NCBI GenBank assembly: GCA_950059285.1
Contig: CATLTV010000022.1
Location: forward strand, 1-42,481
DNA from: an uncultured Pseudomonadota bacterium
GTDB taxonomy: Bacteria > Myxococcota_A > Bradymonadia > Bradymonadales > Bradymonadaceae
Direction of reading: 5' to 3'
Length of the DNA stretch: 42,481 bases
In this document: piece by piece, positions 5,258 to 36,747 of the stretch
How positions within the stretch are numbered: position 1 is the stretch's first letter
Layout: each line of letters opens with the position of its first letter
The notes under the pieces: generated by a model
The model's database searches: none
What the model was told of the DNA's origin: nothing
Seen by the model: only the letters and a program-made list of their open reading frames with translations
Translations under genes and position numbers: made by a program

Positions 5258-5274
5258 TTGAAGACACAACGTCT
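5258..5274 (+). promoter_or_regulatory. Shared upstream motif copy 1 (TTGAAGACACAACGTCT), about 20 nt upstream of the leader ORF of the yqiJ-yqiK operon
   Basis: Exact 14-mer AAGACACAACGTCT also at 8955-8968 upstream of the giant ATPase gene. Core dyad AGAC-N5-GTCT. Confidence 0.5.
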
Positions 5275-5294: not shown

Positions 5295-5330
5295 ATGTAC
5301 ACTCTACATCCAACATTCAGGCCACCCTGA
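5295..5330 (+). CDS. Putative 11-codon leader ORF (MYTLHPTFRPP-stop) in the 5' UTR of the yqiJ-like operon
   Basis: Strong SD AGGAGG 6 nt upstream of the ATG. Ends Pro-Pro-TGA. About 220 nt of untranslated sequence with small hairpins follows before the yqiJ-like start. Confidence 0.3.
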   Translation: MYTLHPTFRPP

Positions 5331-5552
5331 AAAAGAAAATCAAACACCCTGACAACGCTCACCACACAATCCTTGTCAAGATCGATGCAGTATTGCAGTG
5401 CATCATGTCTATGGTGTAGGTTTGGCGCATAATTCAAAGCCTTAATCACAGGCTTGCCTGCCTACAGTATGTACCCATGAACTGCGCCCTGTATTTGATC
5501 TTCCAAAGATTGAAATCTTGGCGTCAAGTTGTGCCATGATCGGACGTGTACC

Positions 5553-6362
5553 ATGCAAGAGTTTCTACACATCATCCTCAACCTCCCGACAGCCGCATAC
5601 ACACTGCTTTTGGGAGTGGTCATCATCTACTGGATCACCGTGATCCTGGGCGTACTTGACGTCGATCTGTTTGATCTGGATGCCGACCTGGACGCAGACA
5701 TCGATCTCGACGTGGATGTCGATGTGGATGTTGATGTCGACGTCGACGCGGATGTCGACGCTGACGCAGATGTCGATGGAGCATCAGGCATTATCTCTGT
5801 CCTGGATGCGCTGGGACTTGTGGGTGTACCGCTGACGATCTCTCTGAGCCTGTTCACGTTCTACAACTGGTGCGCGACCTTCCTTGGAAGTTACATGCTT
5901 GGCGCAGGTCAAACACCGCTGTCTGGCCTCATGGCAGCAGGCGTCTTCACAGGGTCATTTATCTTGAGCCTGGTGATGACCTCCATGTCCGTCAAGGCAA
6001 TCCGACCCATGTTCCAGAGCAAGGCGGGCGCAAAGGCCGGGCGAGCATTTGTGGGACATACAGTGAAGATCATATCGGGCAGCGTGACGCGCTCGCATGG
6101 ACGTGCAGAGATGCCGATGGATGGAAGCACGGTGAACCTGTCTGTAAGGTGTGATAAGGATCAAAATGGCCTCAAAAAAGGCGATGAAGCCCTGATTATT
6201 GGCTACAACAAGGAGCAACACACCTACATGGTGGAACCTTTGAACACCATGCTCGGAAAATCACCCACACATGAAGACAAGGTCAGCCTTGAGGAGGCGT
6301 TCAAGGAACTTGAAGAAAGCACGCAAGAAGCCAAGGCACATCAAACAAAAAACTCAAACTAA
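5553..6362 (+). CDS. yqiJ: YqiJ-like inner-membrane protein (DUF1449, NfeD-like C-terminal OB fold) with an acidic (DxD)n repeat. ORF track starts at TTG 5529; the ATG at 5553 is preferred.
   Basis: Architecture matches E. coli YqiJ: TM, acidic D/H-rich loop (here DVDLFDLDADLDADIDLDVDVDVDVDVDVDADVDADADVD), TM helices, C-terminal soluble beta domain (GHTVKIISGSV..GDEALIIGYN). Directly upstream of a YqiK-like flotillin, as in E. coli yqiJK. Confidence 0.75.
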   Translation: MQEFLHIILNLPTAAYTLLLGVVIIYWITVILGVLDVDLFDLDADLDADIDLDVDVDVDVDVDVDADVDADADVDGASGIISVLDALGLVGVPLTISLSLFTFYNWCATFLGSYMLGAGQTPLSGLMAAGVFTGSFILSLVMTSMSVKAIRPMFQSKAGAKAGRAFVGHTVKIISGSVTRSHGRAEMPMDGSTVNLSVRCDKDQNGLKKGDEALIIGYNKEQHTYMVEPLNTMLGKSPTHEDKVSLEEAFKELEESTQEAKAHQTKNSN

Positions 6363-6427: not shown

Positions 6428-8824
6428 ATGAGACCCACTCTTGTACTGGCGCAAGTGTCCACAGATGGACTCCCCATCTTCGGCCTCGTCGTCGCCGCCA
6501 TCATCATACTCTTTGTCCTTGGCTTCCTTGCCTTTGTCGCAAAACTGTACAGAAAAGTACAGCAGGGCCAGGCTCTTATCGTCAACAAACCAGGTGGTAC
6601 AAAGGTCTTCTTCACGGGCTCTATCGTGGTCCCGCTGATCCACCGCGCCGAATACATGGATATCTCCGTCAAGGCCATTGAGATCGGCAGGGAAGGCCAT
6701 GACGGTCTGATCTGTAAGGACAACATCCGCGCCGATATCCGCGTGACCTTCTTCGTGCGTGTCAACGAAACAGAGGATGACGTCAAGCGCGTCGCCAAGA
6801 TGGTTGGCTGTGCACGTGCATCTGACCAGGCCACCATCGAGGAGCTCTTTGGTGCCAAGTTCTCCGAGGCGCTCAAGACCGCTGGTAAGCAGTTCGAGTT
6901 TGAAGAGCTCTACCAGGCTCGTCAGGAGTTCCGCGATCTTATCATCAGCACCATTGGTGATGACCTCAACGGCTACACCCTTGAGGATGTCGCGATTGAC
7001 TACCTTGAGCAAACCCGTCGTGACTCTCTTGACCCACACAACATCCTCGATGCTGAAGGTATCCGCAAGATCACCGAACGCACCGAAGAGCAACGTGTCA
7101 GAACTAATGAATTGAGCAACTCCGCCAATAAAAAGATTGGTAAGGATGACCTCGAAACCAAGATGGCGATGCTTGAATATGAGCGTCAACAATCCGATGC
7201 AGAAGCACGTCAACGTCGTGAGATCGAGATCGTTCGCTCCACACAACGTGCTGAAGCAGAACAGGAAAAAGCACGTCAACTCGCGCTTGAGCGCAAAGCC
7301 CAGCTTCGCGCCGAGGAAGAGGTCAACATCCAGGCCATCAACAAAAAGCGTGAAGAGCAGATCGCCGAGAAGAGCCGCGAGCGTGCCATCATCCTTGAGC
7401 AGGAGTCGATCGAGAAAGAAAAAGATCTCAAGATCATCGAGCGTGAGCGCGAGGTTGAGGTCCAGCGCATCCAGAAAGAGCGCCAGCTTGAAGGTGAAAA
7501 ACGCGAGATCGCCGAGGTCGTCCGCGACCGTATCGCCGTCGAGAAAAACGTCGCGCAGGAAGAAGAGAACATCAAAGATCTTCGCGTCCTCGCTGATGCC
7601 GAGCGTACCAAAAAAGCCGTCATCGTACGCGCTGAAGGTGAAGCTCAACAAAAACTCGTCGTCGACATCAAGGCCGCTGAAGCCAACGAAGAAGTCGCAA
7701 AATACACCGCGCGTCAACGCATCATCGAAGCCGACGCTCAACTTGATTCTGCTGACCGTGTCGCCAAGGCAAAGATCCGCACCGCTGAAGGTATTCAGGC
7801 TGAACAGGCCGCCGAAGGACTCGCAAGGGTTCGCGTCGCTGAAGCTGAAGCCAACGTCGTTGAAAAACGCGGCTTCATTGAAGCCAAGGTCCTCAAGGAG
7901 AAGATGAGCGCTGAAGCCGTGGGTGCTGAGGAGCAAGGTCTTGTCCAGGTCCGCTTGCGTCAGGCCAATGCCGATGCTCGCCAGCGCGAAGGCGAGGCAG
8001 AAGCCGATGTCAAACGTGGCACCATGATCGCTGAAGCGGCTGGCTCTGAAGAGCAAGGCATGGTCGAGATTCGCATCAAGCAAGCTCGCGCTGAAGCCAT
8101 CGAACGTGAAGGTCTCGCTGAAGCCAAGGTCATCCGTGAGCGCCTCCTCGCTGAAGCCGAAGGGTCCCGTCAAAAAGGTCTCTCCGACGCCCAGGTCAAG
8201 GAAGCTCTCGCTGCTGCCATCGAAAAACAAGGTATGGCTGAAGCCGTCGCCATGCGTGAGAAACTCCTCGCCGAGGCCGAAGGCATCGAGAAGAAGAACC
8301 TCGCTGATGCCGCTGGTATCCGTGAGCGTCTCATCGCCGAAGCCACGGGTCTTGAGCAGAAGGCTGCGGCAATGAAGCAGCTTGATGACTACAGCCGTCA
8401 GCACGAAGAGTTCAGGCTCGCACTTGAGCACGAACGCGCCATCACCATGGAGCAGCTTCGTACCAACATCGACATGGCTGCATCTCAGGCTGCCGTCTAC
8501 GCTGAAGCGTTCAAGGCTGCTAACATCAACATCGTCGGTGGCGACGAGGGCTTCTACAAGAACTTCCTCGGCTCCGTCTCCCTCGGTCACACACTCGATG
8601 GGTTCGTCTCCAACTCCTCCACCGCTCGCGGTGTCCTCGACCGCCTTGGCATCAATACATCCGCCAAGCCAGGTCAGACCGAGGCTGGTGACACCAAGGA
8701 TGCTGCTGCACCAAAGCAGTCCACATCCGTGGTCTCCCCCATCCCTAACCCTCTTGCAGCAGCAGAGGCCGTTCTCTCCAGCGTGACTGGAAATGCTGAC
8801 ACACAGGACTCCGAAGAGTCCTAA
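6428..8824 (+). CDS. yqiK: Flotillin-like SPFH/band-7 protein (YqiK family) with a long EA-rich coiled-coil C-terminus
   Basis: N-terminal TM, SPFH domain, and the NILDAEGIRKITERTE segment, which matches the corresponding region of E. coli YqiK. About 500 aa of ExxR/AEAEG repeats. Strong SD AAGGAGGT upstream. Confidence 0.9.
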   Translation: MRPTLVLAQVSTDGLPIFGLVVAAIIILFVLGFLAFVAKLYRKVQQGQALIVNKPGGTKVFFTGSIVVPLIHRAEYMDISVKAIEIGREGHDGLICKDNIRADIRVTFFVRVNETEDDVKRVAKMVGCARASDQATIEELFGAKFSEALKTAGKQFEFEELYQARQEFRDLIISTIGDDLNGYTLEDVAIDYLEQTRRDSLDPHNILDAEGIRKITERTEEQRVRTNELSNSANKKIGKDDLETKMAMLEYERQQSDAEARQRREIEIVRSTQRAEAEQEKARQLALERKAQLRAEEEVNIQAINKKREEQIAEKSRERAIILEQESIEKEKDLKIIEREREVEVQRIQKERQLEGEKREIAEVVRDRIAVEKNVAQEEENIKDLRVLADAERTKKAVIVRAEGEAQQKLVVDIKAAEANEEVAKYTARQRIIEADAQLDSADRVAKAKIRTAEGIQAEQAAEGLARVRVAEAEANVVEKRGFIEAKVLKEKMSAEAVGAEEQGLVQVRLRQANADARQREGEAEADVKRGTMIAEAAGSEEQGMVEIRIKQARAEAIEREGLAEAKVIRERLLAEAEGSRQKGLSDAQVKEALAAAIEKQGMAEAVAMREKLLAEAEGIEKKNLADAAGIRERLIAEATGLEQKAAAMKQLDDYSRQHEEFRLALEHERAITMEQLRTNIDMAASQAAVYAEAFKAANINIVGGDEGFYKNFLGSVSLGHTLDGFVSNSSTARGVLDRLGINTSAKPGQTEAGDTKDAAAPKQSTSVVSPIPNPLAAAEAVLSSVTGNADTQDSEES

Positions 8825-8842
8825 ACCCTCCAGAATAAGGGA

Positions 8843-8895
8843 TAGCGAGGCCATATATCTCGCAGATAAACAACCTCGCTATCCCTTATTTATCA
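8843..8895 (+). terminator. Putative intrinsic terminator after the flotillin gene
   Basis: 14-bp inverted repeat aagggatagcgagg ... cctcgctatccctt with a loop of about 19 nt, followed by atttatc. Confidence 0.55.
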
Positions 8896-8952: not shown

Positions 8953-8969
8953 TTCAAGACACAACGTCT
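8953..8969 (+). promoter_or_regulatory. Shared upstream motif copy 2 (TTCAAGACACAACGTCT), about 20 nt upstream of the giant ATPase gene start
   Basis: Same 14-mer as at 5261-5274. Followed by SD AGGAG and ATG 8990. Confidence 0.5.
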
Positions 8970-8989: not shown

Positions 8990-11900
8990 ATGAGCACCGA
9001 CCCAAGCATCGACACAGAGTCCACCACAGAAGGCCAGGACGCCTCTCTGGAAACAAGCAACTATGAGGTCATCCGCAAGCGCCTTGTGGAGCAAGGACGC
9101 GCGCTCGCCAAAAAGGCGGACACACTGAATGCCCGACGCCAGGAATTCTTCGGCTCCACGGTCATGGATGTCATCGACAACCAGACCATCACCACCGAAA
9201 ATAACTGCATCCCTCAGGATATCATCAACCTCGGCGATCAGCTCCTGTTTGGCTACAACGTTCACCGCAAAATGAGCCAGACTCAGGTCTCCGATGTCTT
9301 CAGCCTCCATAACTTCTCCAAGCAAGGCGACGAGATCATCCTTCAACACGTCGCGCAGGACACCTCCAGCAACTTCCTTGGTCAGGAGAGCTTCATCGAA
9401 GCGTTCAATCAGCTCTATTTCTCCTTTAAAGACGCATTCTTACGCCAGCTCCGCCGCGTCGACGGTCGACTGCTCGCTATCTTTCAGACCGGCTCATCTC
9501 TAAGAGATATTCGTGTCTTTCGTTGGGCTGTCGACGTCAATAACAACGTCGAATACATCGATAACGCAGGCCAAAAAGATAACACCTACATCCCCTCTCA
9601 TGACTTTGAGTGGAACCCCACCAAACGTGAAGACCACATCACGGGTAAACACCCCCACATCTCCATTAAAAACAAGGTCTTTGTGGAGACCGTGGGCGGT
9701 GACCTCACCATTAAACTTGAGGACAACACCTCCGATGGGGAAGGCATCTACTCCGAACCTGTCGAGGACAAAAACCAGGCGCTCGGCGATGCCAGCATCT
9801 TCTGGGCCGAGGTCGGTAACCTTATCCTCCTCAAAATCAAACCCTACCGTGAGGAGAACTGGCGTTACTTCGTGTTCAACACCCTCACGCGCACCGTCGC
9901 ACGTGTCGACAGCATCGGACTCTCCTGCGTCGCACTCCCTGAAGACCATGGCATTATCTTCCCTGGCGGCTATGTCCTTGAGAGCGGTGAGGTCAAGACC
10001 TTTGACAATGACACTGCCAAGATGCGCATCGAACATGTGCAAAAGTCTCCCAATGGTGAAGATGTCCTCTACTCCTTCTATCGCCCTGATGATGGGCTCT
10101 ACTTCCTGCTCTCCTACAACCTGATTCGCAAGGAAGTTCAAAATCCCATCCAGTGCCACGGCTACTCCATCTTTGATGATGGCACCATGATCGTCTTCCG
10201 TGCCACGGATGACCAACAAACTCGCCATCACCCCATGCGTATGTGGAGCACGCCCTACGTCAGTGATGCCTTCGCCGCCGCCGCTCCCACCGATGGCTCG
10301 TTCCTCTCAAAAATCGGTAACGCCGACCTCGTACGCGGTATATCTGATGCATATAGCGTGCGAAAAACAATTAACAATCAGTCACCTACAGTGGAGCTTT
10401 ATGCCTCCATCATCTCTGCTGCCGAGCGCATGCTTGACCAGTATTACTGGTATGGTGACAACGAAGTCGAGGACATGTCCTCGACGCTACGCGAGGTCAT
10501 CAAGACCTGCCAGCTCGTCATCGATGAGTTTGAAAAAGTGCGCGCCATGCAACAGCAGGCTCGCAAGGCGCTCAAGGAAGCAGAAGATGAACAAAAGCGC
10601 CTCTTTGGTGATATTCGCTACGGTAACTGGCGCGAAATTAGCCGCTTTGTCGATGCCCTCGATGGCCTGCGTGGTCAACGTGGCCGCCTGATTACGCTAC
10701 GCGAAATCAAGTACATGGACATCAAGCGTGTTGATGCGCTTGAGCAGGATGTCATCGCTCAGTACGACAAGCTCAGCCAGGCGACGGTGAGCTTCCTCCT
10801 CGGCGAGGATGCGCTGACGTCGTATCGCGACGAGATCAAGAATGTCATTGATACGGTGGAGGAGATCAGCAGCACCGTCGAAGCCAATGAAATCAAGGAA
10901 GAAATCGATCGCATCGGTGAGGGTCTTAACCTCTTGACCGAGGTCATCAGCAGCCTCAAAATCGAAGATCCCAACGCACGTACTCAAATCCTTGAGAGCA
11001 TCGCCGAAGTCCTTGGACAACAGAACCGCTCCCGCGCCATGCTTGAAGCCCGTCAACGCGCGCTCCTTGAGTCCGAAGGCAAGGCCGAATTTGCCGTGCA
11101 GTTCCAACTCCTTGGCCAGTCTGTGACCAGCGCACTCGGCATGAGTGAATCTCCCGAACGCTGCGATGAACAGCTTGAGCGCATGATGGTTCAACTCCAG
11201 GAAATGGAGAGCCGCTTTAGCGAATTTGATATCTTCCTCGCCAAACTCACTGAAAAGCGCGAAGAGATCTACGAAATCTTTGAAGGTCGCAAACAACAGC
11301 TCGTCGAGGAGCGCCAACGCAAGGCCAGCACGCTCGCCACTGCCGCCGAAAAGATCCTCTCGGGTATCACACGACGCGCCCAGAAAATGGACGATGTCGA
11401 GAAGCTTAACGCCTACTTTGCTGCCGATGCCATGGTCCTCAAAGTCCGCGAAATCGCGGATCAGTTGCGTGACCTCAAGGAACCTGTCAAGGCCGATGAC
11501 CTCCAGAACCAGCTCAAGGCCACACGCGATCAGGCTATTCGTACCTTGCGTGATAAGCTCGACCTGTTTGAGGACGGCGACGCCATCATCAAACTTGGCA
11601 AGCATCGCTTTAGCATCAACACACAACCTCTGGAACTCACCATGGTTCCTCGTGATGAAGAGGTCCGCCTCCACATCACAGGCACCGACTTCTATGAGCC
11701 TGTTGAGGATCAAGACTTCCTCGCCACTCGCTATCTCTGGTCACAGCAAATCCCCAGTGAAAACAAGGATGTATACCGTTGTGAATATCTCGCAATGAGC
11801 ATCCTCAACGATGCACGTGCGAAGCGTAAGGAGCACACGCTCAGCAGCCTCCACGAGGTCGCGGTCAATAACAATGAGCTGCTCAAAGTCGTACGCAGTT

Positions 11901-14689
11901 ACATCGAAGATCGCTACGATGAGGGGTATGAACGCGGTGTCCATGACACTGACACCACGCTCATTCTCACTGGCTTGATTAACCTCTATTACACCGCTGG
12001 ACTGCTACGATTCAGAGGTCTTGCGCGCGCACTTGCCACGCTCTACTGGGCCTATCCTCCGCTTGAAAATGAGATCGATGAGCGTCAGGCACGCACACTC
12101 TCACTGGCAGCGCAACAATCCGCCAAGGAGTCCCCTGCACAACGCCGCCGTAAACTCCTTGTACGACGCGCCAGAAGCCTTGGTCGCTTGCGTAAAACCT
12201 TTGAGCAAAGCGAGGCCGCACAGAACCTCATTGAGGAGATCATCGAGGAACTCACAACCTTCTGCCAGGACTATGAACTCACCGATACATTTGCGCCGTT
12301 CATGATCAGAGACTCCGCAGAATACTTGCTCGAAGAGCTTTCAAGCAGTGGTGAGCCCAAGTTTGTACTGGGTGCACAGGCAGAAAACCTCGTCACCAAG
12401 TTCCACGACTTCCTCGACTCCACGGGGAACCGCAAGGACTTTGAAGAGGATCTCCAGACGCTTGAGCGTGAGCTTGAAGCAAGCTGGGAGCTGACCTCGG
12501 GATGGATGGAAGCCTACATCTCTCAACGTCGCGAGGACGAAGTTCCCGTGGCTCATCTCAAAGACGAGGCGATCGGCTACATTCTCACAAAAGGACGCGT
12601 GGATCATGAAGTCTCAAGCGCCCGAATTGAAACCACAATCAAGAGTCTTCTTGGCCAACATCCACGCATTCAAAACCAGGAGCTCACCATCAAACTCGAT
12701 GAGTTCCTGAGCCGTGTTAACCAGTTCATCCATGAGCGTGTCCCTGCGTATCGTGCCTATAGAAAGCTCTCGCACGAGGTCCTTGATCGCTCGCGTAAGC
12801 GCCTCAAGCTCGATGCGCTCAAACCCAAGGTCCTGAGCACCTTCGTACGTAACAAACTCATTGACGAAGTCTACCTCCCACTCATTGGCGACAACCTCGC
12901 CAAACAAATGGGTAGCGCTGGCGATTCAGGCCGCAGTGACCGCCAAGGTTTGCTGCTTCTGATCTCCCCTCCTGGTTATGGTAAGACCACGCTCATGGAG
13001 TACGTCGCAAGCCGACTTGGGCTCACGTTCATGAAGATCAACGGCCCCGCACTTGGGCACAATGTCATCTCGATTGACCCCGCCGAGGCCCCCAACGCCA
13101 CTGCGCGACAGGAAGTTGAGAAGATCAACCTCGCCTTGCAAATGGGTAACAACGTCATGCTCTATCTCGATGATATTCAGCACTGTAACCCCGAGCTGTT
13201 GCAGAAGTTCATCTCATTGTGTGATGCCACACGTCGTATTGAAGGCGTCTGGCAAGGCGACACCAAGACCTATGACCTGCGTGGCAAACGCTTCAGCGTG
13301 GTCATGGCTGGTAACCCCTACACCGAGACAGGTGAGCGCTTCCAGATTCCAGACATGCTCGCGAACCGTGCGGACACCTACAACCTGGGTGATATCCTCG
13401 AAGGTTCTCAGGAAGCGTTTGCGCTCTCCTACATTGAGAACGCCCTGACCGCAAACCCTGTGCTCGCGCCGCTAGCAAACCGTGAAAAGGATGACATCTA
13501 CCTGTTCATTCGCATGGCACAGGGCGAGGATATTCCACTGACAGATTTAAAATATAGCTACTCTGCGGTTGAGGCCAATGAGATCGTTAACGTGCTCAAG
13601 AAGTTGTTTGTATGCCAGGACGTCTTGCTCAAGGTGAACCAGGCCTACATCGAATCTGCATCGCAAGACGACGCCTACCGCACAGAGCCCCCATTCAAGC
13701 TCCAGGGTTCCTACCGTAACATGACCAAACTTGCGGAGAAGGTTGTCAGCGCGATGAACGATGAAGAACTCAACGCTCTGATCGATGACCACTACCTTGG
13801 CGAATCGCAGACACTCACCACACAGGCAGAACAAAACCTTTTGAAATTAAAGGAGATCCGCGATAAAATCACCCCCAAAGAACTGGAGCGACTCGACTCG
13901 ATTCGCGCCGAATTCAGACGCCGTAAAATGATGGGTGGCAGCGGTGATAATGATCCTGTGAGCCGCGTCTCTGGTCCATTGAGCTCTCTGGTACAAAGCA
14001 TTGAGGAGTTACGTGGCACAGTGCAAAACCAAAATGGTCTGAACACACCTCTGATTGAGATTCGCGACGCCATCTCGGGTGCCATGGAAAAACTGCACAC
14101 AGAAGGAATTCACACGCGACAGGAACAACAGAACCAGTCTGCGGGTTTAAATGCCGAAGCACTTCAACATATGGTCGAGGCCATGACCCAGATCGCGAAT
14201 ACACAAAAAGCGCCGCAGGCGGCGCCTGTGTCTGCGCCCGAGGTCAATATCCACTCGGATAACTCGCATCTTGAAACACTGCTCCAGAAGCAAACACTCA
14301 TGTTTGAGACGATCTTTGGCCAGCTCGCCAAGCTCGCGGACTCTCAAATTGAGACAAGTCGACAGAGCGCCCAGGCATTGAAGTCTCTTGAGGAGGTGCT
14401 CGCACAAGGCACACCTCTACGTATGCCTCCGATGTCTGCAATCTCTGGTGTCAGTACAACTGCTGCACCTGCCGCCACACAAGCCCAGGCACAACCACAG
14501 GGTTTTGCGGCAGCAGAGCGTCCTCTTACAGGGGTCAAAAAGCGGGTCCCATTCAAGGAAGTACAGAAACAACGCGAACGTGATGAACAGAGTCAGACCA
14601 CAGCACAGGAAAGCAGCCTCCCCGAGGAGGGTGAAGCCCCTCCGACTCAGAAGCTTCCTGCGGTTAAACTAGAACCCCCATTTGAGTGA
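8990..14689 (+). CDS. Giant (1899 aa) uncharacterized protein. It has a beta-rich N-terminal region, long coiled-coil/helical middle, an AAA+ ATPase domain of AAA_5/MoxR-like type, and a Q/A/P-rich low-complexity C-terminal tail.
   Basis: Single uninterrupted ORF with SD. Walker A LLLISPPGYGKTTLMEY (nt about 12950-12995). Walker B VMLYLDDIQHC (about 13153-13185). Sensor-1 VVMAGNPYTE and Arg-finger region IPDMLANRADTYNL. The DD (not DE) Walker B suggests a modified or slow hydrolysis site. No match to a known named family recognised by eye. Confidence 0.85.
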   Translation: MSTDPSIDTESTTEGQDASLETSNYEVIRKRLVEQGRALAKKADTLNARRQEFFGSTVMDVIDNQTITTENNCIPQDIINLGDQLLFGYNVHRKMSQTQVSDVFSLHNFSKQGDEIILQHVAQDTSSNFLGQESFIEAFNQLYFSFKDAFLRQLRRVDGRLLAIFQTGSSLRDIRVFRWAVDVNNNVEYIDNAGQKDNTYIPSHDFEWNPTKREDHITGKHPHISIKNKVFVETVGGDLTIKLEDNTSDGEGIYSEPVEDKNQALGDASIFWAEVGNLILLKIKPYREENWRYFVFNTLTRTVARVDSIGLSCVALPEDHGIIFPGGYVLESGEVKTFDNDTAKMRIEHVQKSPNGEDVLYSFYRPDDGLYFLLSYNLIRKEVQNPIQCHGYSIFDDGTMIVFRATDDQQTRHHPMRMWSTPYVSDAFAAAAPTDGSFLSKIGNADLVRGISDAYSVRKTINNQSPTVELYASIISAAERMLDQYYWYGDNEVEDMSSTLREVIKTCQLVIDEFEKVRAMQQQARKALKEAEDEQKRLFGDIRYGNWREISRFVDALDGLRGQRGRLITLREIKYMDIKRVDALEQDVIAQYDKLSQATVSFLLGEDALTSYRDEIKNVIDTVEEISSTVEANEIKEEIDRIGEGLNLLTEVISSLKIEDPNARTQILESIAEVLGQQNRSRAMLEARQRALLESEGKAEFAVQFQLLGQSVTSALGMSESPERCDEQLERMMVQLQEMESRFSEFDIFLAKLTEKREEIYEIFEGRKQQLVEERQRKASTLATAAEKILSGITRRAQKMDDVEKLNAYFAADAMVLKVREIADQLRDLKEPVKADDLQNQLKATRDQAIRTLRDKLDLFEDGDAIIKLGKHRFSINTQPLELTMVPRDEEVRLHITGTDFYEPVEDQDFLATRYLWSQQIPSENKDVYRCEYLAMSILNDARAKRKEHTLSSLHEVAVNNNELLKVVRSYIEDRYDEGYERGVHDTDTTLILTGLINLYYTAGLLRFRGLARALATLYWAYPPLENEIDERQARTLSLAAQQSAKESPAQRRRKLLVRRARSLGRLRKTFEQSEAAQNLIEEIIEELTTFCQDYELTDTFAPFMIRDSAEYLLEELSSSGEPKFVLGAQAENLVTKFHDFLDSTGNRKDFEEDLQTLERELEASWELTSGWMEAYISQRREDEVPVAHLKDEAIGYILTKGRVDHEVSSARIETTIKSLLGQHPRIQNQELTIKLDEFLSRVNQFIHERVPAYRAYRKLSHEVLDRSRKRLKLDALKPKVLSTFVRNKLIDEVYLPLIGDNLAKQMGSAGDSGRSDRQGLLLLISPPGYGKTTLMEYVASRLGLTFMKINGPALGHNVISIDPAEAPNATARQEVEKINLALQMGNNVMLYLDDIQHCNPELLQKFISLCDATRRIEGVWQGDTKTYDLRGKRFSVVMAGNPYTETGERFQIPDMLANRADTYNLGDILEGSQEAFALSYIENALTANPVLAPLANREKDDIYLFIRMAQGEDIPLTDLKYSYSAVEANEIVNVLKKLFVCQDVLLKVNQAYIESASQDDAYRTEPPFKLQGSYRNMTKLAEKVVSAMNDEELNALIDDHYLGESQTLTTQAEQNLLKLKEIRDKITPKELERLDSIRAEFRRRKMMGGSGDNDPVSRVSGPLSSLVQSIEELRGTVQNQNGLNTPLIEIRDAISGAMEKLHTEGIHTRQEQQNQSAGLNAEALQHMVEAMTQIANTQKAPQAAPVSAPEVNIHSDNSHLETLLQKQTLMFETIFGQLAKLADSQIETSRQSAQALKSLEEVLAQGTPLRMPPMSAISGVSTTAAPAATQAQAQPQGFAAAERPLTGVKKRVPFKEVQKQRERDEQSQTTAQESSLPEEGEAPPTQKLPAVKLEPPFE
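12940..13480 (+). other. AAA+ (AAA_5/MoxR-like) ATPase domain inside the giant protein
   Basis: Walker A, Walker B, sensor 1 and arginine-finger motifs in canonical order and spacing. Confidence 0.7.
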
Positions 14690-15414
14690 TCATGATGGAC
14701 TATCCGCTGGCAAAACAGGAGAAGACCTATCTCAAGGCGCTGCGCAGATTCCAACAACACCCGATGACCCCTGAAGCTGCGCAGATTCTGGCGAACCAGT
14801 CCTCGCTGATGTGGCCCTTTCGCCTGACGGTATTGCTTGGGACCATCCATTTTCTGTGTGTCATCATCAATCCTGCCGCGTTCTCGTTCTCTTACGTGAT
14901 CACGACCACAGTCATCACCAGCGCTGTGATCGTGATCACGCTGATTAAACTCATTATCGTCAAGAGACGCCTCCTCCACACGACTCAGATTGTCTGGGAA
15001 CGCACACCAGACGAAGCGCTGGACATCCTCGTAAAACATCAGCAGTACCAGCACTTACGCCACAGCAGGCTTCAAAAATCTTACAAGATTTACAAGTATG
15101 CGATCCCATCCATGACCATCTTCGCAGGGCTAAGCATCCTGTGCTTGGTCCTACAATTTATGCCAGTTTTTTCAGCATTTAACATTGGTGGCCAGGCCGT
15201 CTTCGCACTGCTTGCATCATTTATCCTGTTCAACATTGCCTGCGTGCTCGCAATGTCCACACGCGGCAAATTACGCGATCAAGACATCGTACAAAAAAGC
15301 CTGAGATCCTCCATGCCCGAGTTGTTCACCACCGAAGCACTTCAGGGTGCTGTCAGCCTTGATGAAAGGGTACAACAAGGGCAAATCAGCATCTCTGAGC
15401 GCCATGAATCGTGA
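14686..15414 (+). CDS. 4-TM membrane protein, paralog A, translationally coupled to the giant gene
   Basis: GTG 14686 overlaps the stop of the upstream gene (GTGA); ATGs at 14692/14695. N-terminal K-x3-HPMTP motif, two hydrophobic hairpins separated by the basic loop IVWERTPDEAL. Confidence 0.7.
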   Translation: MIMMDYPLAKQEKTYLKALRRFQQHPMTPEAAQILANQSSLMWPFRLTVLLGTIHFLCVIINPAAFSFSYVITTTVITSAVIVITLIKLIIVKRRLLHTTQIVWERTPDEALDILVKHQQYQHLRHSRLQKSYKIYKYAIPSMTIFAGLSILCLVLQFMPVFSAFNIGGQAVFALLASFILFNIACVLAMSTRGKLRDQDIVQKSLRSSMPELFTTEALQGAVSLDERVQQGQISISERHES

Positions 15415-15450
15415 CACTTCGCGCGAACACAACGCAGGTAACGCATATCA

Positions 15451-16173
15451 ATGACCCAACAGCTTGATACACAAAACAATACCATGGTGCTCGCTGATGC
15501 ATTGAAAGAATATGACAAACATCCCATGCATCCTGACATTGCGAGGGATCATTACACATCAAAGAAGAGCCTCGTGACGTGGTTGATCTTCACGCTCTTC
15601 CTTGAGATTTATGCCATTGTCTTGTTCATGATGCTCTCTCCAGCAAACCCCCTTCTCTTCCTTACAACCACTGCGATCATCGTACTGATTCTATTGCTCT
15701 TGCCCCTCCTTGGAAGGCTCCGAAACAAGAAGAAGCTCAAAAAAATCTTGTTGGTCTGGGATAAAGCCCCTGACTACGCTCGTCAAAAGCTCATTTCCCA
15801 CTACAGCACCCCTCCAGAACACTTGCTCACCAAGGCAGGAAAATACCAAAACCTCGCGATTGGTAGTTTTATCATGACTCCCTTGAGCATCGTCATCTAC
15901 TCCAACTTACCGTACATAAGCACTGCACCAGAGCTGTTGATCTTGTTTTTTGTCATTATCCCGCTGTCTTGCATCGCAACCTCCGTGGTGCTCATGATAC
16001 AGTCCAAGCGCTTGAAAAAGAGGAACCTCATGTTGCACGGCGACTTTCATCGTATCAACGCTATCATGCCTGCGCTTATCTCATCCAACGATCTCAAAGG
16101 TGGCCTCAGCCCTGATCATGTGCACGCTCAAGGAAACCTGAGCATGGCCGACACAGAACCACAGGAACACTAA
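15451..16173 (+). CDS. 4-TM membrane protein, paralog B, tandem duplicate of 14686-15414
   Basis: Same architecture and conserved motifs as paralog A (KEYDKHPMHPD; LVWDKAPDYAR vs IVWERTPDEAL). Confidence 0.7.
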   Translation: MTQQLDTQNNTMVLADALKEYDKHPMHPDIARDHYTSKKSLVTWLIFTLFLEIYAIVLFMMLSPANPLLFLTTTAIIVLILLLLPLLGRLRNKKKLKKILLVWDKAPDYARQKLISHYSTPPEHLLTKAGKYQNLAIGSFIMTPLSIVIYSNLPYISTAPELLILFFVIIPLSCIATSVVLMIQSKRLKKRNLMLHGDFHRINAIMPALISSNDLKGGLSPDHVHAQGNLSMADTEPQEH

Positions 16174-16181
16174 AATAAACA

Positions 16182-17303
16182 ATGTTTTCAAACAGATACA
16201 AACACAAAACCCATAGTATTCTTCTTTGTTTTATGCTCCTTACTGTGCCCTCCATCGCATCGGCACAGCAGAGCACAATCACACACACCATTGAAGAGGC
16301 GATGACGTCTGGCGATCACGCAGGGCTCAAGGAGCTGTCATCGCGAGGCGCAAAAATCAAGGAACTCCTGAGCATGGAACACCTCCCCAAAGGAGGTGTG
16401 GCCGCAGAGTTGCTCGTGGAGTTTAAAGGAAAATTACTACGTTACCCTGTCAAACTCATGCGTACAGCAACACATGAGCGCTGTGATAAGGATGTGATGG
16501 GTTGGCAAGTCACGCAGGCCCCTGACAAGGCGTTCACATCTGCGCTGCTCAATGTCTTGACCTCGGGCCAGCTTCCTCAAACCACCGCAGATCTTCCCGC
16601 CTGGACCAAAGAAACTCGCCTGCCTGCGTTGCCTGTCGTGGTGACTCAGAGCAGCATCTTTACACCCTACGGCAAGATTGCATGGAGTGTACTTGAGCAA
16701 GAGATTGACCCAGCCTCCCCCATGGCCGAGGTCGCGCCTCCACAAGAGCTTGTCAAACACAGCCAACGTTGGGTCAATGACTTCCTTGAAGAGGAACCTG
16801 GCGCTGCTGCTGTAGATCTTGTCCTGGACCGACGCATAAGCTGGCAGCTACTCAACCGAACCATCTTTGGTGTCTCGTCGGTGGGCTTGTACAGGCTCAA
16901 CCTGATCACAGAGACCAGCGATGGGTTCAACACACTGGCGGCTTCCGCGCCTGTCTTTGGGAGCTTACCTGGAGTCGAGAAACCCGTACCACTTGTACTT
17001 GGTTATTATCCTGTCGGTGAGAATCATGGCTGGCGAGTATCACAAGGTAAGGCTGTACTCCACGAGGATGATAGCTGTGATGCGGAGATGAGCTTTTGTA
17101 CAACCTCGGAGCAAGCTTTTATCGAAAAGTTTGGTGCTCTGTCCAAACGTATGCGCGCCAAAAAGCCAACAAATCCAAGCTTTGCGACCTTTGCCACCAC
17201 AAAAGATGTCACCGTGGAACAGGCCGTCGTGTTCTGGCAACACGCAGCCGTAGCTCTTGGAATTCTTGAGCGTCGCATTTTTCTTAGCTACATCAAACGA
17301 TAA
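16182..17303 (+). CDS. Secreted hypothetical protein (signal peptide, AxA cleavage site)
   Basis: N-terminal signal peptide ILLCFMLLTVPSIASA-QQ. No recognisable domain. 8 nt after the previous gene. Confidence 0.7.
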   Translation: MFSNRYKHKTHSILLCFMLLTVPSIASAQQSTITHTIEEAMTSGDHAGLKELSSRGAKIKELLSMEHLPKGGVAAELLVEFKGKLLRYPVKLMRTATHERCDKDVMGWQVTQAPDKAFTSALLNVLTSGQLPQTTADLPAWTKETRLPALPVVVTQSSIFTPYGKIAWSVLEQEIDPASPMAEVAPPQELVKHSQRWVNDFLEEEPGAAAVDLVLDRRISWQLLNRTIFGVSSVGLYRLNLITETSDGFNTLAASAPVFGSLPGVEKPVPLVLGYYPVGENHGWRVSQGKAVLHEDDSCDAEMSFCTTSEQAFIEKFGALSKRMRAKKPTNPSFATFATTKDVTVEQAVVFWQHAAVALGILERRIFLSYIKR

Positions 17304-17752
17304 TGAAGTCCATGAACAACCTCGCAAAACACGCAATAAAAAATCTTTTACTTCAATCAATTGCAGCACTCACATTGATTGGTTGCAAGACCACAACGAC
17401 CGCTCCTGACACACAGGATGACGCCTCCGAAGCAGTCAATCAATGCACTCAAGAGCGCGCCACCGATCCACTCCTGAGCATCGAGATCTGGGCCTCAAGC
17501 TCACCTGATGCACAGGATTTAAGCGAGGATGCGCGACAACTTAGATCCTCCTGGGGCGATGCTTCGTTAGAGGTTGTACGTGCATGGAAAAACGAAGATG
17601 GGAGCTGGTCTGCGCTCCTCTCGAACTCGCCAGAACCTGACACAAATGACAAGGTTATTCTTCTTGTAATTCAAAAAGATAGCCAGGGCATATGGTCGCA
17701 AGCCATGCCTGCTCAGGTCACAGATGCCGATACCTTGTGGCCTCAACTTTAA
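17303..17752 (+). CDS. Small lipoprotein (149 aa)
   Basis: TAATG stop/start overlap with the upstream gene. Lipobox LTLIGC. Confidence 0.65.
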   Translation: MKSMNNLAKHAIKNLLLQSIAALTLIGCKTTTTAPDTQDDASEAVNQCTQERATDPLLSIEIWASSSPDAQDLSEDARQLRSSWGDASLEVVRAWKNEDGSWSALLSNSPEPDTNDKVILLVIQKDSQGIWSQAMPAQVTDADTLWPQL

Positions 17753-17772
17753 AACACAGCCGAGATAGGATA

Positions 17773-18759
17773 ATGACTCTTCAATTGCGCATGAATTATG
17801 GGGCAACAGCATTATGTACACTGATCACAATGAGCCTGTTTGGTGCCTGTAAAAACAGCACCCCAAGTCCGACCCCACAGGTCGAGCAACCTCAGGAAAA
17901 TACAACTGAAGCACAAGGCTCCACGTCAGCTCCAAAAACAGAGCAACCTGCTGTAGCCGAGCTAACATCAGAACAAAAACAAAAGATATTCAAAGCACTT
18001 GGATGTCCCGAAGAAGCCATCACAGAGACAGGTTGCAAACAGTGTCCTTCTGCTGTGGAGTACTGGACCACTGCACCTCGCTCGGAGGATGCGCCTGAAG
18101 TAACCATCCAACTTGAGCAGGGTGTTTTCAGCTCTACACATACTGGCCGAGAACAGGTCCTGGCAAGCTTTGGAGATTGTCAGGAGCTTCCCGCTGGACA
18201 GTATTATTTTCAAGAGCTTGCACATTTGACAGAGCAAGAAGATGGGAGCTGGACACTTCATGCGAGCGTGAGCGTTGCAGATCCGCAAAAGTGTGAACAA
18301 ATCAAGGTCTCTGACACACTAACCCACACACTTTGCACAACATATCGTGGGCGCATGGGGTCTTACGAAATGGCAATGGAAGCCTATTCGTGGGACAAAA
18401 CAACCTCTTCTGGTGCGGAATCCTATCCCACGACCACGACGATACTCACAGCCATGGAGTATGACAGTTGTGGCTCAAACCTTGTGATTGGAAATGATAT
18501 CAAGCGTAAGTTTGAGGATGTTGATGGCGACGGCTTAAACGATCTCTCCTTTACCATCACACATATTGAAGGTCCATGGACTGGAGATCAGTCCGAGTGT
18601 ATGGATGGTGATTACGAAGGCGAAGAACTTACGCCCAAACGAGATAAGAAAACCACTTCTCACACCTACACTTATATTGCCATCCCCGAAGGGTACAAGG
18701 AGCAGAACGGAAAGACTGCGTTCATCCCACACTCTGCGGAATTCGATGGCTTCTTCTAA
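17773..18759 (+). CDS. Lipoprotein with a GCPxE..GCxxCP motif and a DxDGDG calcium-binding-like loop, paralog 1. ORF track extends to 17692; the ATG at 17773 is preferred.
   Basis: Signal plus lipobox SLFGAC. ALGCPEEAITETGCKQCPS. C-terminal FEDVDGDGLNDLSF...ECMDGDYEGEEL. Paralogous to 19100-20107. Confidence 0.65.
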   Translation: MTLQLRMNYGATALCTLITMSLFGACKNSTPSPTPQVEQPQENTTEAQGSTSAPKTEQPAVAELTSEQKQKIFKALGCPEEAITETGCKQCPSAVEYWTTAPRSEDAPEVTIQLEQGVFSSTHTGREQVLASFGDCQELPAGQYYFQELAHLTEQEDGSWTLHASVSVADPQKCEQIKVSDTLTHTLCTTYRGRMGSYEMAMEAYSWDKTTSSGAESYPTTTTILTAMEYDSCGSNLVIGNDIKRKFEDVDGDGLNDLSFTITHIEGPWTGDQSECMDGDYEGEELTPKRDKKTTSHTYTYIAIPEGYKEQNGKTAFIPHSAEFDGFF

Positions 18760-18950
18760 GAGCGTAATAAAGAAAGAGTTGTTGGGAAAAGCTCGTAGAA
18801 AGCGCGTATTTTGGTGTCGCAAAAACAGAATGTAACACGGCTACTATTCTTGGTTTTTACTCCTTAAACTCCACGCTTTCTCCTTCGCTTTTCTTCCAAC
18901 AACTCCTTCTCCATCACGCTCTAGCTCAGCCATTGCATGGCCACTACATT

Positions 18951-19025
18951 AAAAGGTCAACCCAAAGTGCTCGTCTTGAAGACGAGCACTTTGGGTTGAC
19001 CTTTTAATGTAGTGGTCAAAATTCT
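18951..19025. repeat. 75-bp perfect palindrome (37-bp arms around one central base) between the two paralogous lipoprotein genes
   Basis: ccactacattaaaaggtcaacccaaagtgctcgtctt-g-aagacgagcactttgggttgaccttttaatgtagtgg. Both arms perfectly complementary. No flanking T-tract on either strand. Confidence 0.9.
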
Positions 19026-19099
19026 AATACAGCACATATTACATCGCCTTTAAAAAAGGCCATACGTTATCAACATACAGTTACAAGTGAGAGCTCCAA

Positions 19100-25478: not shown

Positions 25479-25687
25479 GGTGTGCTCCTTGTATCGAAAA
25501 GAGAAGGTGTGTCGTGCCTTTAGTGTGTATATGCTCCACATGACATGGAGCGAACAAGCGTCATGTTGCGCTTGATTGAGGGGGTCATCATCTCGCCCCT
25601 TACATACTTAAGAATACCCACCCCACAGCGTAAAACAATGTCTTAACCGCTGCGAATACGATCAAAAACCATTCAACGCAAAAAATA

Positions 25688-26977: not shown

Positions 26978-27066
26978 ACTATATCCTTTTATGAAGCAGT
27001 ATAATCTGCATGACCACTGCGACATGGCACACACAGCATAGTGATAATCATCACAAGAAGAGAGGA

Positions 27067-28080: not shown

Positions 28081-28102
28081 ACCTTCCTATCAAGGATCAC
28101 AA

Positions 28103-29053: not shown

Positions 29054-29323
29054 CTACATATCCTTCTGAAAGAGTTCCAACGTAAAATAAATATTCAGGC
29101 TGCGCGAACTTTGGTGGTTGTGCTCGCACAACACATGAGGTCAGCAAGACAGGGGGAGCACCCCATGAATCTGACTCGTTTTTGTTCGAAAAATCGCCCA
29201 CAGCCCGCGTTATACAGTTCGTCAGAAGCCTTGTCCAGACGTTACAACGAGCCAGCACCAAGGTATACACAGCCGATGAAAATGGTATATGCGCCTTGAT
29301 TTTAAATGCGTGCAGACACTCCA

Positions 29324-29339
29324 GGTTCTGTTGACCTAA
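29324..29339. repeat. 16-mer GGTTCTGTTGACCTAA, copy 1, overlapping the stop codon of the minus-strand GT4 gene
   Basis: 15/16 identical to 37903-37918 (GGCTCTGTTGACCTAG), which is placed identically at the stop of pglF. Confidence 0.4.
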
Positions 29340-30562: not shown

Positions 30563-30585
30563 AAAATCCTTGCCGTATGATTAAC

Positions 30586-31707: not shown

Positions 31708-31909
31708 TAAATGTTATCTCCCATAGTACAATTAAAAATGTTCGGTCTTGAAAAACTCACATACCAGAAGTACATGCGGTTCTACATTCTTATGTTGCTA
31801 CATGCAAGCCACAGCGGACCGAACCATGCTCCGTTACAAGCGGCCAGTGCATCAAAGCACGCAAGGAATAGCCCAGAACCTAAAACGATTTAGCCCCCCC
31901 AAATAACAC

Positions 31910-33016: not shown

Positions 33017-33025
33017 AGGCACTCC

Positions 33026-36691: not shown

Positions 36692-36747
36692 GCTCACTAT
36701 AGGCGCTCCTAGTATGCCTCTAAACCTTGAACCGAGTTCGACAGACA

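Follow-up and report, generated by a model that had tools for sequence, protein, structure and literature searches.

Which family does an AAA+ protein of 1899 residues belong to when its gene directly follows a flotillin operon, and could such a protein act on the flotillin? The question is raised by a stretch of metagenomic DNA of 42,481 nucleotides (hereafter the window), in which a preliminary description made from the letters alone had pointed to a candidate undescribed membrane-associated ATPase. The role of bacterial flotillins is still debated, and we know of no enzyme that acts on them.

Domain organization of the ATPase

The gene and the regions of its product were delimited by translation, family profiles and an AlphaFold2 model, and are as follows (coordinates are those of the window).

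8990-14689, + strand: ATPase gene, 1899 aa, DUF3686/DUF7902/AAA+, ATG start; "DNA repair ATPase" in public records
9104-10447, + strand (aa 39-486): DUF3686 region, comprising an N-terminal helix, a divergent beta-propeller (strands at aa 60-420) and the first helices
10301-11569, + strand (aa 438-860): long-helix or coiled-coil stalk (AlphaFold2), which contains DUF7902
10808-11059, + strand (aa 607-690): DUF7902, inside the stalk
11585-12802, + strand: small beta domain (aa 866-905) followed by a helical domain (aa 930-1271), both from AlphaFold2
12839-13429, + strand (aa 1284-1480): single AAA+ module, with GYGKT at 1329-1333, LDD at 1393-1395, N1442 and R1460
13430-13969, + strand (aa 1481-1660): conserved helical region after the AAA+ module, with an invariant PPFKLQGSYRNM motif
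13970-14686, + strand (aa 1661-1899): C-terminal tail, low-complexity, A/Q/E/P-rich and non-conserved

The single 5.7-kb open reading frame described earlier is real, and the AAA+ motifs quoted from it were all located in the protein: Walker A SPPGYGKTT (aa 1326-1334, nt 12965-12991), Walker B LYLDDIQ (aa 1391-1397, nt 13160-13180), sensor-1 AGNPY (aa 1440-1444), and LANRAD (aa 1457-1462). Walker A and Walker B belong to the same AAA+ module, at a distance of 60 residues, and the motifs of that module (aa 1326-1462) are the sole NTPase motif set in the protein. In an alignment of 20 family sequences, the GYGKT of Walker A, D1394/D1395, N1442, and R1460 were invariant. The Walker B LDD carries Asp where Glu is usual and, given that this DD rather than DE is invariant in the family, hydrolysis of ATP by the enzyme may be slow or switch-like. 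A Kyte-Doolittle scan of the ATPase found no transmembrane (TM) segment, in agreement with the earlier description, and the protein is taken to be cytoplasmic because it has neither a signal peptide nor a TM segment.

The AlphaFold2 model starts with a helix at aa 24-54 and continues with a beta domain at aa 60-420, matching the beta-rich N-terminal region that had been noted by eye; Foldseek returned propeller matches for this part. The small beta domain that follows the stalk contains a GxHxF..TQ..E motif that is invariant in the family alignment. Over most of the stretch from aa 866 to 1271 the pLDDT was 85-94, and Foldseek gave no match to a solved structure at E≤1e-3 for the small beta and helical domains. 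The tail proposed to be Q/A/P-rich indeed has an A/Q/E/P-rich composition past about aa 1660, the point beyond which the family consensus of the 20-sequence alignment also fails.

Family membership and the AAA+ module

The ATPase matched Pfam DUF3686 (PF12458) with E=5e-190 and 632 bits (cut-off 25) over profile positions 2-448 of 448, and DUF7902 (PF25472) with E=7e-25 and 87.5 bits (cut-off 26). More than 7000 homologs were found with ∼50% identity over roughly 1650 aa; they carry the same Pfam set at similar lengths and are named "DNA repair ATPase" by NCBI. Clustering at 50% identity left 714 representatives, the full-length ones being mostly about 1600-1930 aa. By these profile matches the protein is a clear member of the giant AAA+ family defined by DUF3686 plus DUF7902. 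The view that it was undescribed and belonged to no named family is thus wrong, all the more as the operon had been reported by Ravi et al. 2024 (mSystems, PMC11237479). Both the family and the operon were catalogued before this analysis, and the window by itself is a modest result, adding one more metagenomic member, probably from Myxococcota, to a catalogued, uncharacterized family. Literature searches with DUF3686, PF12458, and DUF7902 returned no experimental work on any family member.

The AAA+ module had been labelled AAA_5 or MoxR-like. AAA_5 is indeed the best-covering Pfam AAA+ model, with a weak match of 33.4 bits (cut-off 22; E about 5e-8) over positions 2-125 of 139, corresponding to aa 1322-1445; the Pfam AAA model matched equally weakly (E about 5e-8) and over positions 1-69 of 131 only. 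Since both matches are weak, we retain "MoxR-like" as a lead rather than as a placement. The best TM-score for the module was to the MoxR-class NorQ (E about 0.012), in a part of the model where confidence is low: the pLDDT of the AAA+ core is below 50, and a predicted hairpin at aa 1416-1429, ahead of sensor-1, lies in the same low-confidence region. Fold matches to such a core are weak evidence, and the AAA+ clade was therefore left unassigned. Alignment of the AAA+ profile by hhalign with single Escherichia coli proteins did not discriminate among RavA (probability 16%), FtsH (34 columns aligned), and McrB (28 columns, P-loop only). PDB sequence searches with the whole ATPase and with the AAA+ profile returned P-loop matches only, those of the profile ending after the P-loop and beta2. 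No VWA-domain partner occurs among the window neighbors or the recurrent neighbor clusters of the homolog loci, no McrC-like gene neighbors the ATPase, and PADLOC was blank for the ATPase, the flotillin-like protein, and six downstream products. The partner genes expected of the well-characterized McrB-like and MoxR-VWA families, raised earlier as possible homes of the protein, were absent.

The upstream genes and conservation of the operon

Two genes precede the ATPase gene on the same strand.

5541-6362, + strand: YqiJ/YuaF membrane protein (NfeD2-type, DUF1449-like), 273 aa, start according to the ENA gene call
6428-8824, + strand: flotillin-like SPFH protein, 798 aa, from its translation and hhalign against YqiK

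The translation and a TM scan showed that the YqiJ-like protein has about 4 hydrophobic segments, a TM pattern that fits the YqiJ type, along with an acidic loop of D/V/A repeats and a soluble domain at the C-terminus; its Hymenobacter ortholog is listed by NCBI as a "DUF1449 family protein". In the flotillin-like protein, an N-terminal membrane anchor is followed by a divergent SPFH/Band-7 domain, a long coiled coil rich in E/A/R, and a C-terminal region of flotillin type. The identification of this pair as yqiJ-yqiK was upheld by hhalign of the family profiles against the E. coli proteins, with a probability of 99.9% for YqiK (E=6e-33; 405 columns spanning the TM segment, the SPFH domain, and the coiled coil) and of 83% for YqiJ (E=8e-6), which is moderate support. 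NCBIfam FloT matched the flotillin-like protein weakly, and Pfam Band_7 missed it and found 1 of 15 members of its subfamily. A PDB search with the flotillin-like profile found nothing, and one with the YqiJ-like profile gave no informative match either. Judged by its sequence, the window flotillin is a member of a divergent SPFH subfamily, about 28% identical to YqiK.

Homolog loci of the ATPase were recovered by a metagenome contig scan with the family alignment (a genome-contig scan with the single protein gave 2 loci). Among the 58 loci with enough upstream DNA, the flotillin-like gene was situated directly upstream of the ATPase gene and on the same strand in 52, and the YqiJ-like gene was upstream on that strand in 51. 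The three-gene arrangement spans at least five phyla and is also present in annotated cultured bacteria, namely Pseudomonas fluorescens (pQBR103), Streptomyces, Hymenobacter, and Deinococcus; ATPase homologs were additionally found in Proteus mirabilis and Vibrio campbellii. The ATPase gene comes third in a conserved operon, in which a YqiJ/NfeD-like gene is followed by the flotillin-like SPFH gene and then by the ATPase gene, and the flotillin/NfeD linkage seen in the window is strongly conserved.

Other genes recur at these loci. PspA was found in 18 and DUF2170 (CesT/Tir-like) in 17 of the 44 loci with enough upstream DNA, about 40% in each case, and a rhomboid protease and phospholipase D (PLD) were each found in 7 of the 62 loci with enough downstream DNA. 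These frequent neighbors reinforce the theme of envelope stress or membrane remodelling that had been suggested for the window. The homolog loci reproduce the full operon of Ravi et al. 2024, consisting of DUF2170/CesT-Tir, PspA, the YqiJ-like gene, the flotillin-like gene, and the ATPase gene, with or without PLD. Those authors described the operon, AAA+ ATPase included, by gene-context inference, with no mechanism or experiment; its three core genes have the same order as in the window, and the domain description of the ATPase is the same. DUF3686 is not named in that work, so the equivalence rests on architecture and neighborhood rather than on a shared accession. In contrast to the full operon, the 42-kb window has no PspA, DUF2170 (CesT/Tir), rhomboid, or PLD gene that could be detected with HMMs built from the locus homologs. 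Having no CesT/Tir-PspA dyad, the window holds the "abbreviated" operon form, which the same paper also mentions.

Comparison with known systems

E. coli YqiJ-YqiK and Bacillus subtilis YuaF-FloT are NfeD2-SPFH2 flotillin pairs (Hinderhofer et al. 2009, PMC2636767), homologous to the upstream pair of the window and encoded in the same gene order. Unlike the window, E. coli K-12 has no ATPase gene after yqiK, where sibD/ibsD come next. HflK/C-FtsH is an SPFH cage enclosing an AAA+ machine. The window operon may be likened to it conceptually, in that both combine an SPFH scaffold with an AAA+ ATPase at the inner membrane; however, FtsH is a membrane-anchored protease of the classical clade with about 640 aa, whereas the window ATPase is soluble, three times larger, and devoid of a protease domain, and the sequence likeness of the two is confined to the P-loop. 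The MoxR chaperones of the AAA_5 group (RavA-ViaA, NorQ-NorD, and CbbQ-CbbO) have a motif string past Walker B that looks alike by eye, but the ATPase is 4-6 times larger, carries a propeller and a stalk, has DD in Walker B, and comes without a VWA partner. The pairing of an ATPase with a membrane-remodelling polymer, as in Vps4/ESCRT-III and PspF/PspA, follows the same logic, the ATPase family being often encoded beside PspA/IM30. In contrast to Vps4 and PspF, the ATPase has no MIT domain or sigma-54 activator features, it shows no homology to them past the AAA+ P-loop, and PspA is missing from this window.

Proposed function and alternatives

In at least five phyla the ATPase is encoded beside a single flotillin subfamily, and its sequence is unusually conserved, which makes it a natural candidate for a flotillin-acting enzyme; the flotillin-ATPase association had been noted once before, computationally. 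We propose, with confidence that is evenly balanced, that the protein is an ATP-driven remodeller that works on flotillin/PspA assemblies, or inside them, on the inner face of the membrane, with a role in membrane maintenance or envelope stress. Each step of this mechanism is drawn from gene context and fold. The ATPase would be cytoplasmic and would form oligomers by way of its one AAA+ module, the probable form being a hexamer with a mass of about 1.3 MDa. The beta-propeller and the coiled-coil stalk could dock onto a flotillin assembly, at its cytoplasmic coiled coil or cap, and the YqiJ-like partner may help to anchor and organize this assembly. ATP would be used to assemble, open, or disassemble the flotillin scaffold, plus PspA polymers where present; as an alternative, the enzyme might pass membrane clients into and out of the scaffold. 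Taken as a whole, the system would serve membrane maintenance and envelope-stress repair, in analogy to Vps4 on ESCRT-III or FtsH inside HflK/C cages. Several points count against this proposal: about 10% of the homolog loci have no adjacent flotillin gene, the window is devoid of PspA, DUF2170, rhomboid, and PLD genes, Walker B is DD, and the AAA+ core was modelled at low confidence. A stronger version, offered tentatively and with some doubt on our part, is that the DUF3686 protein could be the dedicated ATP-driven motor of a flotillin cage, coupled to PspA/ESCRT-III repair, and that aa 930-1271 might form a new adaptor fold. If so, this protein would be the first enzyme known to open, close, or disassemble a flotillin/SPFH assembly, and the operon would be a genetic and biochemical handle on bacterial flotillin function. 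The hypothesis is directly testable, since homologs exist in tractable bacteria (P. fluorescens with pQBR103, P. mirabilis, V. campbellii, and Streptomyces).

Instead of the scaffold itself, the ATPase could act on clients of the scaffold. Lacking a protease domain, it would be an unfoldase or maturation chaperone of the MoxR or FtsH kind and would extract, unfold, or mature particular membrane proteins; the flotillin and YqiJ-like proteins would then be a platform or gate that concentrates these clients as HflK/C does for FtsH. The AAA_5 match and the structural matches to NorQ lean toward the MoxR class, the rhomboid protease recurs in the operon, and individual literature statements have SPFH scaffolds housing AAA+ proteases and Staphylococcus aureus FloA-NfeD stabilizing unfolded proteins. 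Against these points, the operon conserves neither a VWA partner nor a protease domain nor any obvious client gene, and the comparisons with RavA, FtsH, and McrB do not fix the AAA+ clade. Context data alone do not separate a client-acting from a scaffold-acting ATPase, and we regard action on clients as possible but somewhat unlikely. A second alternative, which the preliminary description had kept in view, is an anti-phage or conflict system: infection would be sensed by the giant NTPase, which would act with flotillin/PspA either to trigger or to prevent damage to the membrane, much as in abortive infection. Conflict systems commonly contain giant NTPases whose sensor domains are propellers or coiled coils, several ATPase homologs reside on megaplasmids such as pQBR103, and the distribution over phyla is patchy. 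A defence role is nevertheless unlikely, and clearly so, considering the blank PADLOC result, the lack of any ATPase homolog in 2.9 million viral contigs, and the housekeeping genes that flank the operon in the window (PPK2, MsrB, Cu-ATPase, and polysaccharide synthesis). Moreover, no domain of an effector nuclease, protease, or toxin was found, and for a defence gene the family is unusually conservative, since its members keep one architecture and ∼50% identity over 1650 aa from phylum to phylum.

Taken at its word, the public annotation would make the protein a DNA repair ATPase like SMC/Rad50 or RuvB. It agrees with the Pfam description of DUF3686 ("ATPase involved in DNA repair"), with long coiled coils that superficially resemble those of SMC or Rad50, and with the presence of recJ downstream in 5 related loci and of lexA next to the Hymenobacter operon. 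The matches to RuvB that could be cited in its favor are weak, with scores of about 19 bits where the cut-offs are 282-299, and they cover the P-loop only. The protein has no ABC-type split head, nuclease, or DNA-binding domain and no SMC/Rad50 match in Pfam or NCBIfam, its conserved neighbors are all membrane proteins, and we found no support for the name in the literature. We consider a function in DNA repair highly improbable, and the public name probably misdirects.

Downstream genes and regulatory elements

The gene that follows the ATPase gene either begins 2 nt beyond the ATPase stop codon or shares a GTGA overlap with it, and a hydropathy scan of the downstream products revealed 4-TM proteins, one protein with a signal-peptide-like N-terminus, and lipoprotein-like proteins. 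The tight junction on which a partnership with membrane and secreted proteins had been based is thus present. These genes were found on the window's own contig (L001) and in one 70% relative (L002) and were absent at the other 80+ homolog loci; being confined to L001 and L002, the genes for the 4-TM, secreted, and lipoprotein-like products are lineage-specific, and we place them outside the conserved system.

Three elements were found in the DNA around the operon.

5261-5274, + strand: 14-mer AAGACACAACGTCT, copy 1, exact, about 270 nt upstream of the YqiJ-like gene
8833-8891, + strand: hairpin with an 18-bp stem between the flotillin-like and ATPase genes, from RNA folding
8956-8969, + strand: 14-mer AAGACACAACGTCT, copy 2, exact, 21 nt upstream of the ATPase start codon

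The 14-mer that had been reported upstream of both genes does occur in two exact copies, a match count that was reached by no shuffle; copy 1 lies 22 nt upstream of a Shine-Dalgarno sequence and ATG that open an 11-codon ORF (5296-5331). Apart from the window's own ENA contig, none of the 85 fetched loci, L002 among them, has the 14-mer, which is therefore not a family-wide operator; it is a candidate lineage-specific regulatory site. An ECF-type promoter (-10 CGTCT) was considered for the 14-mer and set aside, as no convincing -35 element was seen by eye at the right spacing. The intergenic hairpin (-33 kcal/mol, z=-8.2) appears to be terminator- or attenuator-like and, if the ATPase does remodel a flotillin scaffold, could keep the enzyme sub-stoichiometric to that scaffold. 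A hairpin of different sequence, followed by a T-run, is present at the same intergenic position in L002.

Sequence and predicted structure of the giant ATPase

The ATPase gene, an uninterrupted ORF with an ATG start (8990–14689, + strand), encodes 1899 residues and is certainly real. A word-indexed search returned more than 7000 homologs, the best 120 of which share 50–85% identity and are nearly all full-length. In a 20-sequence alignment of the family, mean column identity was 54% over ∼1650 residues, and the Walker A motif and the DD pair in Walker B were invariant, along with N1442 and R1460; the A/Q/E/P-rich tail after residue ∼1660 is the sole unconserved part. All of the motifs quoted in the preliminary description were located (SPPGYGKTT, residues 1326–1334; LYLDDIQ, 1391–1397; AGNPY, 1440–1444; LANRAD, 1457–1462), and a hydropathy scan found no TM segment, in agreement with its account of a protein lacking one. 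Pfam places the protein unambiguously:

Residues 39–486: DUF3686 (PF12458), E = 5e-190, full-length match
Residues 607–690: DUF7902 (PF25472), E = 7e-25
Residues 1322–1445: AAA_5, E = 5e-8, positions 2–125 of 139 covered
Residues 1322–1399: AAA, E about 5e-8, positions 1–69 of 131 covered

With the DUF3686 region as query, an exhaustive HMMER search recovered 714 representatives of clusters at 50% identity, 238 of them at E ≤ 1e-30, and since the full-length representatives are mostly ∼1600–1930 residues long, the family architecture is fixed. Homologs are named "DNA repair ATPase", "MoxR-like ATPase", or hypothetical in NCBI and JGI records; NCBIfam holds no specific model for the protein, which gave only sub-threshold RuvB P-loop matches.

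The N-terminal portion was modelled from a 12-sequence alignment (residues 1–720, pLDDT 80) as a helix (residues 24–54), a beta-rich domain (60–420), and long helices (438–719). When Foldseek was used to compare this model with the PDB, the matches were beta-propellers (CyRPA, paraoxonase, the prolyl-oligopeptidase propeller, the clathrin N-terminal domain, IFT-A, and Elp1; E = 1e-5 to 1e-3, TM-scores low), which indicates that the predicted beta-rich domain is a divergent propeller. In the C-terminal model (residues 721–1680, pLDDT 74), the long helices continue to residue ∼860 and are followed by a small beta domain (866–905), an invariant RYDEGYERGVHD motif, and a helical domain of ∼340 residues (∼930–1271, window 11777–12802, pLDDT 85–94). 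Foldseek found no PDB counterpart of this model or its helical domain at E ≤ 1e-3, AAA+ ATPases being the only matches, and the modelled helical domain may be a new fold.

The AAA+ core itself, which precedes a helical post-AAA region, was poorly modelled (pLDDT below 50). Its structural matches were weak (E ≥ 4e-3), the top TM-score being that of the NorQ hexamer of the MoxR class (0.45 normalised by target, probability 1.0, with the core at the low pLDDT just given). PDB sequence and profile searches reached no further than the P-loop and its surroundings in classical AAA proteins and RuvB, and hhalign against single RavA, FtsH, and McrB sequences did not discriminate among the three. On the basis of these results, we describe the protein as a divergent single-module AAA+ for which AAA_5/MoxR is the nearest Pfam model, with no clade assignment implied. 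The earlier label "AAA_5/MoxR-like" was thus a fair lead but is not a placement.

Conservation of the flotillin-like and YqiJ-like genes

Two genes precede the ATPase gene:

5541–6362, +: YqiJ-like gene, multi-TM protein that carries an acidic D/V repeat
6428–8824, +: flotillin-like gene, 798 aa; hydrophobic anchor at the N-terminus, SPFH-like region, long coiled coil rich in E/A/R

Pfam Band_7 misses the flotillin-like protein and detects 1 of 15 orthologs, and the window flotillin is a member of a divergent subfamily. Profile alignment of Escherichia coli YqiK with the 15-ortholog profile spanned 405 columns (probability 99.9%, E = 6e-33), and E. coli YqiJ matched the YqiJ-like family profile with a probability of 83% (E = 8e-6). 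NCBI names the Hymenobacter ortholog of the latter "DUF1449 family protein", its label also for YqiJ. The reading of the pair as a yqiJ-yqiK-like operon is therefore correct. Inside the gene for the YqiJ-like protein, a tandem array (6/12/18 nt, degenerate; 5677–5777) specifies the acidic run DLDADLDADIDLDVDVDVDVDVDVDADVDADADVD between TM segments. An acidic loop, not the repeat itself, is retained at this site in orthologs, and the loop may be cation-binding or length-variable.

Six-frame ORFs of 80 metagenomic loci with ATPase homologs at 43–53% identity, and of a few genomic loci, were searched with the proteins of the window. Upstream DNA extended for 3.5 kb or more in 58 loci; in 52 of these, the flotillin-like gene lies immediately upstream of the ATPase gene on the same strand, preceded by the YqiJ-like gene in 51, and both are absent in six. 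The proposed flotillin/NfeD linkage thus holds across homologs. Clustering of all flanking ORFs revealed recurrent accessory genes, namely PspA/IM30 (18/44) and DUF2170, a YjfI-type CesT/Tir-like chaperone (17/44), where upstream DNA sufficed, and a rhomboid protease and a PLD-family hydrolase (7/62 each) where downstream DNA sufficed. None of the four occurs within the window. Annotated replicons agree with the metagenomic loci on gene arrangement:

Hymenobacter plasmid: Tir chaperone, PspA, DUF1449, hypothetical, "DNA repair ATPase"
Pseudomonas fluorescens pQBR103: PspA, rhomboid, DUF2491, DUF350, DUF1190, glutathionylspermidine synthase, hypothetical, SPFH, "DNA repair ATPase"
Streptomyces plasmid: hypothetical, flotillin, ATPase
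Deinococcus plasmid: hypothetical, hypothetical, ATPase

On pQBR103 (85–98 kb; strain SBW25), the three genes lie directly 3' of the yjf-type block running from PspA to glutathionylspermidine synthase, with an MvaT/MvaU gene next; this well-studied megaplasmid is a convenient genetic system for their function. On another locus, a high-GC metagenomic contig (L032, 1–720), the flotillin reading frame runs on from its C-terminus, via a linker rich in Ala, Arg, and Pro, to the start of the ATPase. If the fusion is natural, it would count as Rosetta-stone evidence that flotillin and ATPase interact; otherwise, the assembly has lost a stop codon or introduced a frameshift.

Full-text literature searches for DUF3686, PF12458, and DUF7902 returned nothing. 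Hinderhofer et al. (2009) described the NfeD-SPFH2 pair, with no ATPase. Ravi et al. (mSystems 2024, PMC11237479; preprint 2020) described operons combining, among other parts, CesT/Tir-PspA and a YqiJ/YuaF-type 3TM protein, with PLD in some Proteobacteria, and found abbreviated operons with only flotillin, YqiJ, and sometimes the ATPase to be more widespread. Because the recovered loci agree gene for gene with that description, the window locus belongs to a system already on record from computational work and adds no biology beyond what is catalogued. With this and the DUF3686 and DUF7902 matches, the term "undescribed" does not stand.

Proposed function of the ATPase

The protein is soluble and joins a predicted propeller and a long helical stalk to a single AAA+ module whose catalytic residues are invariant. 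Its placement after flotillin and a YqiJ partner is conserved and co-transcriptional, and the frequent added association with PspA, the CesT-like chaperone, rhomboid, and PLD is one with membrane-dynamics or membrane-turnover functions. The membrane theme of the preliminary description survives on these grounds. We propose that the ATPase would oligomerise via its AAA+ module, that the propeller and stalk would dock it onto the cytoplasmic flotillin assembly, and that ATP would be spent on remodelling the scaffold and/or PspA polymers, or on moving clients in or out, analogous to Vps4 with ESCRT-III and FtsH with HflK/C. The invariant DD in Walker B suggests, from sequence, slow or switch-like hydrolysis.

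An ATP-driven remodeller acting on the flotillin scaffold and/or PspA polymers is our main explanation, and we give it about an even chance of being correct. A closely related possibility, a client-directed chaperone on a flotillin platform, seems rather unlikely. Carriage of homologs on megaplasmids would fit a defence system; yet PADLOC returned nothing, no homolog occurs among viral contigs, the protein is highly conserved, and its flanks are housekeeping genes (PPK2, MsrB, Cu-ATPase, polysaccharide synthesis), leaving that role improbable. A function in DNA repair, whose sole basis is database naming, is very improbable indeed, as the protein lacks an SMC/Rad50-type head as well as any nuclease or DNA-binding domain and its conserved neighbours are membrane proteins. 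The DUF3686 family is a strong, testable candidate for a flotillin-directed motor.

Intergenic elements

The exact 14-mer AAGACACAACGTCT occurs twice in the window, each time 21–22 nt 5' of an SD+ATG. The copy at 8956–8969 precedes the ATPase gene, and that at 5261–5274 precedes only an 11-codon ORF (5296–5331, MYTLHPTFRPP) ∼250 nt before the YqiJ-like gene. The 14-mer may serve both sites as an operator, a promoter, or a translational element, and the short ORF may encode a leader peptide; among 86 fetched loci, the 14-mer is found only in the window's own ENA contig (L001). A strong hairpin (8833–8891; 18-bp stem, −33 kcal/mol, z = −8.2) lies 3' of the flotillin gene, ahead of the ATPase gene, and a 70% relative (L002, 9850–9905) has a hairpin of other sequence in the same position, followed by a T-run. 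The hairpin is conserved in position, not sequence, and may set a lower ATPase-to-scaffold ratio.

Downstream genes and window flanks

The first downstream gene begins 2 nt past the ATPase stop codon, in a cluster (14686–20107) that contains paralog pairs and in which Pfam recognises no family:

Two 4-TM proteins (242 and 240 aa), paralog pair
Two lipoprotein-like proteins (355 and 335 aa), paralog pair, Cys after a hydrophobic leader in each
373-aa protein with a signal-peptide-like N-terminus
149-aa lipoprotein

All six genes tested match the window's own ENA contig, two also match the 70% relative, and none matches any other fetched locus. The cluster is lineage-specific, and the suggestion that its membrane and lipoprotein products are partners of the ATPase is not upheld.

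The window and L001 are only 96–99% identical, with the near-identical ATPase proteins differing in at least one residue. Window 15390–16263, which holds the strongly divergent second 4-TM paralog, has no blastn match in L001, and the single 355-aa ORF of the window (17692–18759) is replaced in L001 by a tandem pair of lipoprotein paralogs (315 and 331 aa). These differences make the region 3' of the ATPase gene variable among strains. The window's own pair of lipoprotein paralogs flanks a perfect palindrome with a 20-bp stem (18955–19001), followed by the T-rich run CTTTTAAT. It matches L001 in inverted orientation and, because it scored as terminator-like on both strands, may be a bidirectional terminator.

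An ERF-superfamily single-strand annealing recombinase gene (24690–25541, − strand), near a TetR regulator gene and between the Cu-ATPase gene and the polysaccharide-synthesis cluster, may be a prophage or mobile-element remnant. That cluster (26249–39854) encodes a nucleotidyl transferase, a dehydratase, several GT4 glycosyltransferases, an ABC exporter, and a Polysacc_synt_2 protein; the Pfam model 'GT4-conflict' also matches two of these glycosyltransferases.
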